From positions 768,001 through 832,000 of the forward strand of contig CM000429.1 in assembly GCA_000165345.1 (NCBI GenBank): 64,000 nucleotides of DNA. Reading direction: 5' to 3'. Position numbers: made by a program. Shown here piece after piece: positions 55,671-61,600 of the stretch. Within the stretch, counting starts at the first letter, position 1. Every line of letters starts with the position of its first letter.

Positions 55671-58600
55671 CTCTCTCTCTCTACCCTATTTTTTCTCCTC
55701 TTTTCTTTTTTCGCTGATTAACACCCTAATAATATGTCATAATTCTCTTCTTACATTACCTAAAAATATCTTATCTTATTTTAAATACAAATACAATTTC
55801 AACAACTTTTAAATATTTTATTTAAACTATTTGTTGGTTTTAGCGTTAAAAATTCATCTTTTTCAAAAGAACGAAATCCAAACTTCTTAAACATTAATAA
55901 GTATCTATTTGATTATATTTCCTTTTCCGTTTCTTATTTATTATTTCACTTCTATAATTATTTTCATTCCCTTCTTATTATAAATTATAAACCTGTGTAA
56001 ACTGAACTTTAAAAATTAATATTAATCCATTTTTTCCTATGAATTTATCAATATATTATCCAATAATCATATCATAGAACAAAATCAAAAAATAATAATA
56101 AATAAAATAGAACTCTAATTATTAAGACATAATTATTTTCCAATATTCAAATTTCTCATATTTTTATTTAGGAAAAAAAATAATATAGAATTACCAATAA
56201 TATAATATATATATATATTTATTCATTTATTCTATCCCCTATTTTCCTCAAATATTAATTATTCATTTCTCTCTTTATATTTAATTAATAGGTTTAAAAT
56301 ATTATATATATATTACAATATTTAACTTGCTATTTCGTTATTATAATCCGATAATTATCTATACATGTTTGTGGATTTAATTGTATGTGTTATTATTATT
56401 ATTATATTCATTGCTACTCTAAAAATTAAACCTGTTCATTCTTATCCATTACAATCCTCTAATATTAAGTTCTCATATGTAAAAAAAAATATTGTGTATT
56501 TATCTTTTCTTTATTCTTTAAATCCAAATACAAAAACAAAATAAATCATTTCTACATATTTATATACCAGCCAAACTAAATATATACATATAAATATATT
56601 TGAATAAACCCTTATTAATTAAGACTTTATTTGAAATTAAATATCTTCTCCCATTTTTATTCCTTTAAAGTCTTCTTAAATATATTAAAAGAATATTGTT
56701 GTTCGATTGAGATTTTTTCAAAAAAAGAAAAAGAAAATCCTTGAATTTCAATTATTTTTATGTATATATGTATATATACATAAAAATATATATTAAAATA
56801 ATAAATAAGTATTATTATTGTTTGACCCTTTTTACTCAGTCTTGACATCCTTCTGATCTACACCATTAAACAAATAACATGAAAATAAAGCACTAAGTAA
56901 AATAATCAACCAATGTATTATTGTTGGTTGAGAATTACTATATCTTGATGAAGAATTTTTATTATCCGAATTATTATCTTGATTCTCATTTTTAGAATCT
57001 GATGGTGAATTATTAGCATCCTGAACATTCTTTTGAATTTGAGTATTTTCAGTATTATCAGCAATATCGTCAATATCATGCAATTGTTGCTTTAAATATA
57101 ATATCAGCATATCATTGTTTCCTAAATTTTCATAATTAATACTTTGATTATAGTAATCAACTGAATGATTTGTAACACCAGTATATTGTACAGCTGATGG
57201 AGATAAATACGAGGAGAGTGAGGATGGCGAAGTCAAGTTTTTTGGCTCCCAATGTGATTCTGAAATTGTATCATTATCTGCACTATGTCTATAATTTGGT
57301 GGATTTTTACTAGATGTACCAGAACTTAAATTAGGATTTTGATTATTAATATTATTATTATTACTGTTACCATTTTCAATATTTATATGTTTTGTATTTG
57401 AATCAAATACTACAACTTCAGATTTCATAATTGATTCTGGTGATGAAGTTGATGCATCTTTTAATAATTGTGACATCTCAGATGTAGAAGTTCTTCTTGC
57501 ATGTGCAATTTGGGGACAATTCGACTTGACAAATGAAGCTCTTGAATTTTTTACATCAATAATAACATCCTTATTAATAAAGAATGATGCACCAAGTACT
57601 AAGAATGATTTATCAGAATCAAATCCCAAACAATAAGTATTTCTGTATTTTTTGTAAAGATATTGAGCTGGCTCCCATTCAACTTTTAAACCTGGGAATC
57701 CCAAAGTAATAGTTGGGAAACGTGACATTTCATTTGGATCTCTTAATTTCCAACATCTTTCACCTTTTGATGTTTCAAGCATTATCCTTGATACTGAAGA
57801 ATCAATATCAAATTCTTGTGAAGAGAATAATGTGTTAATAGTAGAAGTAGTAGTACTAGTTGTTGTTTGATTAAAATGATTTGAAACTTCATTACTATTA
57901 TTTAACTGATTGTTACTTGATTCAATATCCTCATTAGTAAAGTTCTCAGGATGTACAGTTGAATTAAAAGTATTAACAATATCTTCAATATTATTAAGCC
58001 TTCTATATACTCTTTTTCTAAGTAATGCAGCACCAGGAATTTCACCAGGGAAAATTGAAATTTGTTTAATTCCTAACTCCAATTCATTTTGAGATGATGA
58101 TGATTTAAGACCAGTATATTCCAAAAATTTGGAGCCGGCTTCAATAAGACTTCTAAAAGTTGACTTATTTTCAGTCTCTGCAATTCTTTGATTAATAACA
58201 TTCAATATTTGAATAAAAATATGCTCAGGGAAATATGATAATGTTGTACCACTATCAATAACAAGTGGAATAGGTTTTGTATTACCAGATGATGAATCTT
58301 TATGCAAAGTTAATTTAGTTTGATAAACACTTACTTTAGTTAATTGAACATAATAATTTCCATTCAAAATAGATAAAGGAGTCCAACCAATTTTTGAATC
58401 CAAATTATTTCCTCTTGAATTTGAACGTGATTGACTATTACTAGAACTTGATAAAAATGAATATCCAAGTGCTCTTTCAAACAAATTAGATTCAGAAGTA
58501 GACCTAAATGATTTATCATTGGATCCTAAAACCCAATATTCAGAATTATAACCACCAAAAGAAATCATACCACCTTCTGAACTAAAGCATAAAGATAAAA

Positions 58601-61600
58601 TAGCATCTTTAGCATATTTAGATCTTTTTGTCCATGTTTGGAATAATGGTGCCCTTTCTTGAGAACTTGCAGTATAAGCTAATCCAAGAATACCAGAAGC
58701 TGCTTGAGTAAAGAATAGATTAGTTTCATGAGTAATTCCACCAAAAATGGTTGATAATCCAACAACATATGGTGAAGGCTCAGAATTAACTCCTTTTTCA
58801 TTTCTGATTGCAACAAAATCCTCAAAGTAACTTCCTGATAAACTGCTTCCTTCTAAATAATGAATAGTATAAGCACATTGCTTTTTATTATTCACACAAA
58901 CTTTGCAATAAGAATGGCATGGGACTTCCCTTTTTGTTATACTTTTAAAAGGGTCATAATATGCATCAAGGTGTGTCCCACACTGTTGACATTGAGTACT
59001 ACTGAAAGCAAGAAGGTTACTTCCTGTATCCAAAATAACACTCTGTCTCTGAGGTTCTGGAAGTCCAACAAAAATATCGGAATAATAATAGGCTGTTGAA
59101 ACAATACTACCATAAGCCTTCATTTGAATTCTTGCTTCAACCCTTGAGAAGCTACATCCAAATAGAACTGCTCCTCCCAGAGTAGCAATAAGTATTTTCA
59201 TTATATTCATTCTAGTTAAATCGATTCGTACCTTCTCTTGAAATTTTTTTTTTTTTGATTTATGTCAACTCAAGAAATTATTCCAATCTTCCAGCCGTAC
59301 CTCGAAACTTATTTCGAAACTTTCCCCAATATGTTTGGCAACCAGCCTCTCACTTCCTCTAATTCAAGCTTCCCTATGTAGACAGTGCACGCAATACTGT
59401 CTATTCACACCAAGATGCAACAAAGCCTTTATTGATTTTTTTTTCTTACGCCTAAACTGCAACTCTTGCCTATTCCTGCTGTCCAATGAGCCCGCCTGAA
59501 AATATAAGGATTTCACAAGAGGGGAAATTCAAAAGTGGGAAAGGACTAAATTTACAGATTTTTCTCACCCCTTTGGGTTTGCTTTGTAATATCCTGACGA
59601 ATTTTGTAATTTCGCAGAAAAACTACAACTATGCAACTTTATCTTATTTTTCTTCTTAATCCTAATTTGAATTGCTTTATAATTATTCTATAATGCAAAA
59701 TTTTTTAGTTGGCCCCCACAGCCCGCCTCATACCTACCTAATAGTACTATTTGACTCGAAGCATAAATCCACGATTTTTTGCATACCGGCATTCATGCAA
59801 ATCAATTGCATGTGGCCTAACCATTTTTTTTTCTGTCCACATGAAAAAAAAAATAATATTTAAGAATGAATTGTGTATCAGAAAAAAGAAAATAATTCAA
59901 TTTCTAAACATGTAAAATTATTATCTAATTGAATTTAAACGACTAAATACAGATTTATTAATTTTTGTGTGAATAACCTAAGTAATCATTAAAAAAATAG
60001 TTGATTATATAAATATTTAATTGTTCATAATATAAATTAGAAAATTCCAAATTTATTAGCCATCTAAATATATATCTGTATATATTAATTTACTCATTTA
60101 ATAATATATTTCATTTGTAAAATATTCTTTAATTATTGAATCTTGAAATCATTGCTGTTCTAAACCCTATTGTATAGCTAAACCATGAGAAATCCTAATT
60201 TAAATTAGCATTGCATAGACGTGTACGTTAGGGACTAAAGGAAAGACATGGAAAATGGCAGTTAGACATAAGGAAAAACAAGTGACTAGTGGTCATTAGA
60301 AGAAGTTGAGCTCCAACATTAGGAAAGATGCCAGATTTTTGACGTAAAGATTAGTGGTAACAAAGCTAGAATTTGGGATTTCCGTAATGCCTTAAGAGTT
60401 GATTACACGAGATAAACATACAGAAGTTAATAATTACTAAAACAAGTTGTGAATAGATTTTTTATAAAGTTAAGAATTGAAGAAACAAATGAAAAACTGA
60501 ATTAAATGAAGAAGAAACAAAGTTAAGTGAACATTATCTAATACAAATATTCTAAATAATCTGGTGGATTTTTTTTTTCCTTATTTAAAATGAATTCTTT
60601 AAGCCTTTCTCACTCATTAGGAAAGAGTTATTTATTTGAGAGATACTCCAGATTTGGGATGAGTGACTCAATTATTCAAAGAAATTTTCAAAACCCAGTT
60701 TCTGTTTATAATGAGCTCTTGGCTACAGAATTACTACCAACAACAGAAAGTGACTTTTCTGCAATGGTCAAATTGAGAGTAGGATCTCAATCTATGGGAG
60801 TCCAAGAAAGAAGAAAATTAGGAAGTAAAAAGTTATATGGCGATGAAAATGAATATTCTCGATTAAATTCATGTGAAGTATTTGATCCATTTGCAACTGT
60901 TCCCTTGAGATCAGTTTCTATGGATCCAGCATGGCTATCATCAACAAATATGGGAATGGGTCCAATCTCTAGAAAAATTCCAAAAGGGCCATTCAAAATT
61001 TTAGATGCTCCTAACTTGCAAGATGATTTCTATTTGAATTTGGTTGACTGGAGCTCCACAAATTTACTAGCTGTTGGATTAAGCTCATCAGTTTATTTAT
61101 GGAGTGCATCCACATGTAAAGTTACCAATCTATTAAATCTCCAAGATCAAGACACTGTTACTAGTGTATCATGGACACAACAAGGTAATCATCTCGCTGT
61201 TGGAACTAGACAGGGTTCTGTTCAAATTTGGGATGTTGTAGAACAGAAAAAAGTACGCACTTTAAATGGACACAGAGCAAGAATCGGTGCAATGGACTGG
61301 TGTGGGCCAATCTTGGCAACAGGAGGAAGGGATCATACTGTATTATTAAGGGATGTAAGAGAACAGGAGCATTGGTGTAGCAGATGGTTGGGGCATAAAC
61401 AGGAAGTATGCGGAGTTAAATGGAGCCCAAATGAAATGCAATTAGCTACTGGGGGTAATGATAATAAGTTGCTTATATGGTCGCAAGGATATGATACTCC
61501 TGTGTGTCAGTTCCAAGAACATACTGCTGCTGTTAAAGCATTATCTTGGAATCCCCATCAGTCCGGACTCTTAGCATCAGGTGGAGGAACTGCTGATAGA

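Follow-up and report, generated by a model that had tools for sequence, protein, structure and literature searches.

The apicomplexan aspartic proteases with which the protein considered here is most readily compared are plasmepsin V (PMV), reported to license proteins that carry the PEXEL motif, and ASP5 of Toxoplasma gondii (TgASP5), a Golgi protease of the TEXEL motif. Both are described as consisting of a signal peptide, a NAP1-type catalytic domain that lacks a prosegment, and a C-terminal anchor (PMC4764566). PMV is further defined by its NAP1-type insert and by an unpaired cysteine at the tip of the flap, which is fully conserved in Plasmodium (PMC9478907). In TgASP5, binding of the P3 Arg and the P2 residue of the substrate is ascribed to Glu506, Gln549, Thr686 and Tyr689 (10.1101/2023.02.16.528815). 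We analysed a window of 64,000 nucleotides (assembly GCA_000165345.1, contig CM000429.1, positions 768,001 to 832,000 of the forward strand), the minus strand of which encodes, at 56832..59210, a 792-residue aspartic protease of Cryptosporidium parvum. A sequence-only reading of this stretch had proposed that the protein may be the orthologue of PMV and ASP5.

The protease at 56832..59210 is the product of cgd1_3690, named CpASP2 (PMC13637054; PMC13007382) and called "CpMAP" in a proteomics paper (PMC11039866). It has thus already been annotated, named and genetically characterised; its architecture is real, and it is not new. CpASP2 is reported to be necessary for egress of the parasite from host cells (PMC13637054; PMC13007382), and according to these reviews it is expressed in asexual and sexual stages and is not deletable. 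It was also detected in small extracellular vesicles of sporozoites (PMC11039866). With a probability of roughly 0.8, we consider CpASP2 to be a type I membrane-anchored protease of family A1B, clade D, which most likely matures effectors of egress.

The cgd1_3690 gene and the architecture of its product

The gene is an intron-less, uninterrupted open reading frame (ORF) with an ATG start. Its boundaries had been given exactly by the sequence-only reading, and its product is identical over the full length (100%) to the deposited C. parvum Iowa II protein EAZ51360.1 = QOY43252.1 / CPATCC_000021. Orthologues are present in at least 10 Cryptosporidium species, that of C. tyzzeri being 97% identical. 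A chance ORF was rejected, because 2.4 kb without interruption in DNA of about 30% GC, together with orthologues in at least 10 species, is far beyond expectation.

The gene lies at about 830 kb of the approximately 881-kb chromosome 1, and three independent anchors identify it as cgd1_3690. The first is the mannosyltransferase PIG-M, three genes away, which is cgd1_3720 = CPATCC_000018 (PMC9713705); counting from it through acetyl-CoA synthetase and CDC20 leads to CPATCC_000021. The second is the adjacent gene at 54467..55258 (plus strand), whose 263-residue type I protein with EGF domain fits the published description of cgd1_3680, an EGF-domain microneme candidate (PMC8710574). The third is the next gene, at 47338-53505 (plus strand), encoding a 2055-residue remodeller of CHD1 type (SNF2/chromodomain). 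Its 3´ end harbors an in-frame minisatellite (53296-53453, 18 bp x 8.8, unit CCTGAGAATGAGCCTAAA), and the published primers for the cgd1_3670 variable number tandem repeat match exactly at 53225 and 53489, with a predicted product equal to the dominant 265-bp allele.

The following features were assigned, all on the minus strand; the basis of each is given in brackets.

56832..59210, minus strand: complete single-exon coding sequence of cgd1_3690 / CPATCC_000021, i.e. CpASP2 or "CpMAP" (ORF listing, exact protein identity, gene order, neighbour anchors)
59133..59210, minus strand: predicted signal peptide, residues 1-26, with predicted cleavage VEA/RIQ (hydropathy, -3/-1 rule, species variation)
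57510..59132, minus strand: predicted lumenal or extracellular catalytic domain, residues 27-567 (Pfam, alignment to PMV over 29-334 and 436-568, AlphaFold, Foldseek)
59019..59030, minus strand: first catalytic motif, D61-T-G-S64 (invariant in all alignments)
58875..58991, minus strand: nepenthesin-type (NAP1) cysteine cluster, or Insert-1, residues 74-112 (alignments, spacing comparison)
58845..58859, minus strand: flap tip Y118-L-E-G-S122, with Leu in place of the free Cys of PMV (alignment)
58386..58535, minus strand: Insert-2, residues 226-275, an inter-lobe loop rich in Ser and Asn, placed where PMV has its "charged insert" (composition, low model confidence)
58245..58256, minus strand: second catalytic motif, D319-S-G-T322, followed by T323 and Y326, counterparts of Thr686 and Tyr689 of TgASP5 (alignment)
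57756..58172, minus strand: Insert-3, residues 347-485 (139 residues), at the helix-turn-helix site of PMV (AlphaFold, conservation, insert lengths)
56925..57509, minus strand: juxtamembrane stalk, residues 568-762, rich in Asn and Ser; its conserved islands include 568-605 and 654-690 (composition, alignment)
56862..56924, minus strand: predicted C-terminal hydrophobic membrane anchor, residues 763-783, TIIHWLIILLSALFSCYLFNG (Kyte-Doolittle value 2.06; conserved in intestinal species)
56835..56861, minus strand: short charged tail, predicted to be cytoplasmic, residues 784-792, VDQKDVKTE (sequence, orthologue comparison)

The N-terminus, MNIMKILIATLGGAVLFGCSFSRVEA followed by RIQ, is hydrophobic (19-residue Kyte-Doolittle mean of 1.6-1.9 over residues 1-24), and the predicted cleavage site, preceded by V and A at the respective positions, obeys the -3/-1 rule. 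Residues in front of this site are variable in the Cryptosporidium alignment, and conservation starts at RIQ-MKAYGS. Only about 35 residues separate the site from the catalytic Asp61. The first catalytic Asp of mature pepsin stands at about position 32, which leaves no space for a prosegment in CpASP2; judging by its sequence, it is not a zymogen. At the other end, the maximum of hydropathy (2.06, residues 763-781) marks the only strong hydrophobic segment past the signal peptide in our scan; a weaker one at 535-553 is a buried strand. The transmembrane string named in the sequence-only reading, HWLIILLSALFSCYLFNG, corresponds to residues 766-783, so that the prediction of a membrane segment did not fail. 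The tail contains no canonical KKXX motif for retrieval to the endoplasmic reticulum; its end, ...QKDVKTE, has Lys at -3 and -6.

Between these two segments lies a pepsin-like domain. Pfam recognises Asp (PF00026) with 72.5 bits against a cut-off of 19.9; the TAXi_N and TAXi_C models also exceed their cut-offs, with 57 and 47 bits, respectively. Each lobe has one catalytic motif, DTGS at 61 and DSGT at 319, and the flap Tyr is Y118. The protein has 12 cysteines, of which ten are lumenal; C19 belongs to the signal peptide and C778 to the anchor. C74, C77, C98, C102, C105 and C112 form the NAP1 cluster (C-x3-C-x2-C-x6-C), which is invariant in Cryptosporidium and nearly so family-wide. Because this six-Cys cluster is the insert defining MEROPS A1B, CpASP2 belongs to the nepenthesin type. 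With both Asp motifs, the flap Tyr and the NAP1 insert (a putative disulfide staple) intact, the protein is, judging by its sequence, catalytically competent.

The AlphaFold model, built from a diverse alignment of 125 sequences, predicts a bilobal protease of pepsin fold, with a predicted local distance difference test (pLDDT) value of 78.6, above 90 in the core, and a predicted TM-score of 0.77; a shallower model (17 sequences, pLDDT 44) was discarded. A Foldseek search of this model against the PDB yielded 551 matches at E<=1e-3, and the best 50 listed were all aspartic proteases. Thus the combination of signal peptide, pepsin fold and C-terminal hydrophobic segment, as proposed from the sequence alone, is borne out by hydropathy, Pfam and the predicted structure.

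The unusual length of the protein had been attributed to Asn/Ser-rich insertions, and composition agrees with this: residues 226-290 contain 25% S and 12% N, residues 346-470 contain 13% N, 14% S and 11% T, and residues 576-760 contain 18% N and 18% S. The Asn/Ser/Thr-rich regions (226-275, 347-485 and 568-762) nevertheless hold genus-conserved islands, so they are not pure low complexity. Insert-3 comprises a predicted helix (351-366), a conserved island (381-405, IKQISIFPGEIPGAALLRKRVYRRL) and a disordered N/S/T-rich stretch. At the site where PMV has its helix-turn-helix, the model shows consecutive helices 329-346 and 351-366 (pLDDT 70-96) followed by about 100 disordered residues; the insert corresponds in its site, though not in its length (139 residues against 51). 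The island, encoded at 57996-58070 on the minus strand, is strongly conserved in all Cryptosporidium species and has a cluster of basic residues (RKR/RR); it might serve for processing, regulation or the binding of a partner.

Relationship to plasmepsin V, ASP5 and ASP7

The family of CpASP2 can be stated firmly. It is a nepenthesin-type A1B protease of apicomplexan clade D (PMV/ASP5/ASP7) with a type I membrane tether, and in this broad sense the sequence-only reading assigned the class correctly. Among solved structures, PMV (PDB 4ZL4, 6C4G, 8TYF, 8TYG) is the best match in both sequence and fold. In a search of all PDB sequences, P. vivax PMV scored E~4e-39 and the next relatives, BACE2, chymosin and cathepsin D, about 1e-6, a lead of about 33 orders of magnitude. 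By fold, four P. vivax PMV entries came on top (E~1e-32, TM-score 0.81, target-normalised), about 11 orders ahead of rhizopuspepsin and BACE1 (E~1e-21 to 1e-20). The same search of all PDB sequences, which include plasmepsins IX and X (PMIX and PMX), returned no chain of plasmepsins I-IV, IX or X even at E<=10. Human BACE1 and BACE2, the second-best group, resemble CpASP2 in type I topology and lumenal pepsin domain. They differ in having a prodomain and no NAP1 insert, and are distant relatives (E~1e-6 by sequence).

The layout itself is not restricted to PMV and ASP5. An exhaustive phmmer search of 1.84 billion representatives gave 1776 homologues, the best 150 of which mostly show the Y-x-E-G-S flap and, past the catalytic domain, a hydrophobic segment. 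Named examples come from dinoflagellates (Effrenium, Amoebophrya), gregarines, coccidia and Plasmodium; a word-index search seeded with the ASP7 orthologue of Besnoitia also returned proteins of a ciliate (Tetrahymena) and an oomycete (Pythium). Because the layout is common across alveolates and other protists, the combination of signal peptide, pepsin domain and C-terminal anchor is a family-wide trait and not a signature of PMV/ASP5, as had been supposed from the C-terminal transmembrane segment.

Could CpASP2 still be the true functional orthologue of PMV or TgASP5? We compared their hallmarks, as well as those of ASP7, in an alignment of named representatives. PMV shares with CpASP2 the signal peptide, the lack of a removable prosegment, the DTGS and DSG[ST] motifs, the NAP1 insert, the Y-x-E-G-S flap with the Glu that binds P3 and a conserved Gln, as well as an insert in the inter-lobe loop, a further insert past the helix that follows DSG, and a C-terminal anchor with short tail. 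The differences are nonetheless numerous. CpASP2 has Leu in the flap (YLEGS) where PMV has its free Cys (YCEGS), so the free-Cys feature that the sequence-only reading proposed to look for is absent. All Cryptosporidium orthologues have Y-L/M-E-G-S, and of about 160 homologues the Plasmodium representative alone shows YCEGS. CpASP2 has 10 lumenal cysteines against 15 in PMV (seven disulfides and one free), the NAP1 spacing is C-x3-C-x2-C-x6-C against C-x4-C-x5-C-x4-C, and the second Asp motif reads DSGTTLSY against DSGSTFTH. Insert-3 has 139 residues against 51, and the stalk about 195 against about 36. By contrast, Insert-2 is of similar size in CpASP2 (50 residues), PMV (55) and ASP5 (50-91), and much shorter in dinoflagellates (6-9).

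TgASP5 and the ASP5-like proteins of coccidia and gregarines have in common with CpASP2 the clade D architecture and exactly the same S3/S2 residues (Glu, Gln, Thr, Tyr; DSGTTxSY). E120, Q169, T323 and Y326 of CpASP2 align to Glu506, Gln549, Thr686 and Tyr689 of TgASP5, E120 being the counterpart of the Glu that binds the P3 Arg in both TgASP5 and PMV. The same residues are conserved in ASP7, gregarine and dinoflagellate homologues as well, so they are not diagnostic of orthology. In contrast to CpASP2, with 60 residues before the first catalytic Asp and a compact Insert-1, ASP5 has 198-313 such residues and a long Gly-rich Insert-1 (33 residues). Insert-3 of ASP5 has only about 12 residues. 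The cytosolic tail is about 9 residues long in CpASP2, 17 in PMV and 111-229 in ASP5, and by the linker measure of the alignment the stalk spans 201 residues in CpASP2, 36 in PMV and 59-89 in ASP5.

Clade-specific profile models point in the same direction. Between those of PMV and ASP5, mutual recognition is strong (224-334 bits), whereas CpASP2 obtains 139 bits with PMV and 207 with coccidian ASP5, below dinoflagellate homologues (176 and 308, respectively). With phmmer, PMV likewise scores CpASP2 at 139 bits, ASP5 at 224-230 and a dinoflagellate homologue at 176.

Orthology to PMV or ASP5 does have arguments in its favor. No other solved relative comes as close to CpASP2 in sequence and fold as PMV, the Glu, Gln and Thr binding the P3 Arg and the S2 Tyr are all conserved, and Dumaine et al. 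suggested PMV/ASP5-like enzymes as the proteases that process MEDLE2. In published trees, according to reviews, CpASP2 also stands closest to PMV (PMC13637054). Against these stand the structural differences, namely the missing flap Cys, the 10 instead of 15 lumenal cysteines and the lack of an ASP5-type long N-terminus, Gly-rich Insert-1 or long tail, together with the scores of the clade models and neighbour-joining bootstraps of 2-10% for PMV and 0-1% for ASP5. Functional reports are also unfavorable: the knock-down phenotype concerns egress, not export, the motif of the exported effectors MEDLE2 and MVP1, S-F/L-hydrophobic, resembles PMIX/PMX sites and not RxL, and preliminary data implicate CpASP4 in processing and export of effectors (PMC13637054). 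Nor do the ORFs with signal peptide in our window contain RxLx[EQD] in their first 150 residues or RRL anywhere. Strict orthology to either protease is not supported at the level of sequence, and that CpASP2 is their functional orthologue appears unlikely to us.

The lineage of TgASP7 offers a better placement. A neighbour-joining tree of 150 representatives did not settle the sister group of CpASP2 (PMV 7/200, ASP5 0/200). The closest non-Cryptosporidium sequence was a Besnoitia protein, whose T. gondii orthologue is "Aspartic protease 7" (A0MQA5; 69% identity), and the word-index search found the Neospora "Aspartic protease 7, related" and gregarine relatives. When ASP7 and gregarine sequences were added, CpASP2 joined the ASP7 clade in 99/200 replicates, PMV in 9/200 and a second Cryptosporidium paralogue in 1/200, and TgASP7 was the nearest non-Cryptosporidium sequence by distance (1.09). 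Over nine settings of trimming, distance correction and taxon removal, ASP7 was the sister in 41-67% of bootstraps, against the low values of PMV and ASP5 given above. An attraction by base composition should draw CpASP2 towards PMV, since Cryptosporidium and Plasmodium are AT-rich, unlike Toxoplasma; the trees obtained do not show this. Scores of the ASP7 clade profile for CpASP2 are not distinctive; the profiles place the query outside the pair of PMV and ASP5 models that recognise each other.

Members of this lineage (TgASP7, Neospora, Besnoitia and Cystoisospora, and gregarines such as Gregarina niphandrodes, Lankesteria and Blabericola, the last as P0190) are, by distance, the nearest sequences outside the genus. 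They share with CpASP2 the NAP1 form C-x3-C-x2-C-x6-C-A-Y, the flap Y-[LM]-EGS (the YMEGS of C. andersoni being identical to their form) and DSGTT[LM]SY. The NAP1 spacing is possibly ancestral, since it is nearly the same in dinoflagellates. A large Insert-3 is found in some members (224 residues in Cystoisospora). The coccidian ASP7 proteins differ in a longer N-terminus (about 180-215 residues before the first Asp), and their models have no clear C-terminal transmembrane segment by hydropathy scan, although these gene models are possibly incomplete.

Judged from sequence comparison, affinity to the ASP7 lineage is moderately supported as the best placement of CpASP2. The published position closest to PMV would be compatible with it if few ASP7 and gregarine sequences had been sampled, as Plasmodium has no clade D protein other than PMV. 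We go one step further only tentatively, at somewhat less than even odds: CpASP2 might be the counterpart of neither PMV nor ASP5 but the orthologue of the TgASP7 lineage, an old clade D paralogue kept beside an ASP5-like gene in coccidia and gregarines.

Two further observations concern the homologues. C. serpentis, C. andersoni and C. muris possess a second, shorter clade D paralogue of 442-500 residues (P0129/P0169/P0170), with the two middle NAP1 cysteines missing, DTGSTFS[YH] as second catalytic motif and no C-terminal hydrophobic segment in the hydropathy scan. Its clade model gives its top scores on gregarine ASP5-like proteins, and this paralogue may be the real counterpart of PMV/ASP5. 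Besides, a homologue of 1169 residues from a Logan assembly (P0168) repeatedly groups beside the CpASP2 or ASP7 clades.

Membrane attachment and other affiliations

Several points weigh against the reading of CpASP2 as a membrane-anchored clade D enzyme of egress. Our trees were built by neighbour-joining on about 370 trimmed columns, not by maximum likelihood. The phenotype and any localisation come from two reviews, i.e. from secondary sources. The S3 residues, being family-wide with dinoflagellates included, fall short of proving RxL specificity. Finally, although hydrophobicity of the anchor is kept in intestinal Cryptosporidium species (17-residue Kyte-Doolittle values of about 2.1-2.2), it is weak, about 1.3, in the gastric C. 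andersoni and C. serpentis (P0011/P0012).

In view of this last point, CpASP2 may be attached to the membrane differently from one Cryptosporidium species to another, or its hydrophobic segment may serve as a glycosylphosphatidylinositol (GPI) signal. If it were such a signal, or were lost in some species, the mature enzyme would be lipid-anchored or shed instead of being a type I transmembrane protein. Presence of CpASP2 in released vesicles would suit this alternative, as would the hydrophobic stretch lying no more than about 10 residues from the C-terminus, preceded by small residues (SSS, NS) that present a candidate omega site. However, a charged tail of about 9 residues (about 9-12 in intestinal species) with conserved Lys at -3 is atypical of GPI signals. 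Moreover, homologues throughout the family carry a transmembrane segment at the equivalent place, often with long cytosolic tails, among them PMV and ASP5, whose segments are experimentally accepted. We thus hold lipid anchoring or shedding to be distinctly improbable, even more so than orthology to PMV or ASP5.

The sequence-only reading had mentioned an ASP3-like post-Golgi maturase as an equal option. The functional half of this idea keeps some ground, for the reported requirement in egress resembles that of PMX and ASP3. Descent from clade C (ASP3 and PMIX/PMX), on the other hand, was rejected and seems very improbable. PMIX, PMX and TgASP3 have long prodomains and neither NAP1 insert nor C-terminal anchor, whereas in CpASP2 Asp61 follows 35 residues after the cleavage site, leaving no prodomain, and its NAP1 insert and anchor are traits of clade D/A1B. 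PMIX and PMX chains, though present in the PDB, were not matched at E<=10, and a different C. parvum protein, XP_627444.1, is PMX-like.

A soluble digestive protease of food-vacuole type, or a generic lysosomal pepsin-like enzyme, can be dismissed, since beyond the common pepsin fold nothing speaks for it, CpASP2 has A1B features and a membrane anchor, cathepsin D and pepsins reach only 1e-6 to 1e-2 against 4e-39 for PMV, and the food-vacuole plasmepsins (clade A, type II proenzymes of opposite topology) gave no match at E<=10, so that clustering with them was not seen.

Neighbouring genes and the role of CpASP2

The sequence-only reading also supposed that the protease processes a class of secreted cargo encoded in its vicinity. 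The flanking genes, however, encode CHD1, the EGF microneme candidate, CDC20, acetyl-CoA synthetase, PIG-M and GFAT, and all except the EGF candidate are housekeeping. The cargo meant was probably a divergent pair of paralogues about 55 kb from CpASP2, at 258-2321 (minus strand) and 3099-4622 (plus strand), which match each other at E~1e-39 to 1e-47. Their products have a signal peptide and multiple TSP1 and PAN/Apple domains, the first also a C-terminal transmembrane segment, and are TRAP/MIC-like adhesins. They are the only mutually related members among the ORFs with signal peptide in the window. Strong N-terminal segments resembling signal peptides are also present in the ORFs at 42344-43912 (plus strand), 44674-45732 (minus strand) and 28034-28462 (plus strand), which have no Pfam match, are mutually unrelated and likely represent Cryptosporidium-specific secreted proteins. 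Besides the missing RxLx[EQD] and RRL motifs, a scan of the signal-peptide ORFs of the window for S[FL]-hydrophobic motifs gave nothing meaningful. Adjacency of genes in a eukaryote is not evidence of functional linkage, and there is no evidence within the window for a functional link between CpASP2 and neighbouring secreted genes.

Some observations on the locus deserve to be recorded. The single ORF of cgd1_3680 (263 residues) lacks a signal peptide at its N-terminus, and in one assembly the gene is annotated as a spliced model of 243 residues, so its 5´ end may be modelled wrongly. The published cgd1_3680 immunogen CAGDQTINSG, given as residues 51-60, corresponds here to CAGDQTINCG at residues 46-55. 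Between the convergent 3´ ends of cgd1_3680 and cgd1_3690 lies a (TCTT)n / 24-bp polypyrimidine microsatellite (55596-55682), and the part of the window at 22000-38000 is markedly AT-rich (GC 0.20-0.28 compared with 0.30-0.39 elsewhere) with few long ORFs.

How could CpASP2 work? Judging by its sequence, it is delivered into the secretory pathway by its signal peptide. The long flexible stalk of about 195 Asn/Ser-rich residues, one hydrophobic helix and the 9-residue tail form a membrane tether, and the active site faces the lumenal or extracellular side. There, CpASP2 would cleave proteins of the secretory pathway, and because it retains the residues that bind basic P3 (E120, Q169, T323, Y326), it would probably favour Arg/Lys-x-hydrophobic sites. 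The egress phenotype, detection in vesicles, the PMIX/PMX-like motif of effectors, the data on CpASP4 and the existence of a separate PMX-like protein together make maturation of egress factors the most likely task. We suggest that CpASP2 would proteolytically mature effectors of egress, either in the secretory pathway or on released vesicles. In such a case, the job of PMX/ASP3 would be done by a PMV-like enzyme, which would not license effectors exported to the host.

Cryptosporidium is a major cause of childhood diarrhoea, for which no fully effective drug exists; in malaria, aspartic proteases have been validated as drug targets. CpASP2 has already been recognised as an essential, membrane-bound, PMV-like enzyme of egress, and finding it again adds nothing new. 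What we add is modest: the layout is family-wide, several hallmarks of PMV are missing from CpASP2, and a possible ASP7 lineage presents one new lead. If this lineage is true, the export-licensing function of PMV/ASP5 should not be transferred to CpASP2, and the fit of peptidomimetic inhibitors of PMV should not be assumed, despite the retained residues of the P3-Arg pocket. Licensing of export would then fall to the shorter second clade D paralogue of Cryptosporidium (the P0129/P0169/P0170 type) or to the PMX-like enzyme. TgASP7, reported not to be expressed in tachyzoites, would in turn act in enteric or sexual stages.

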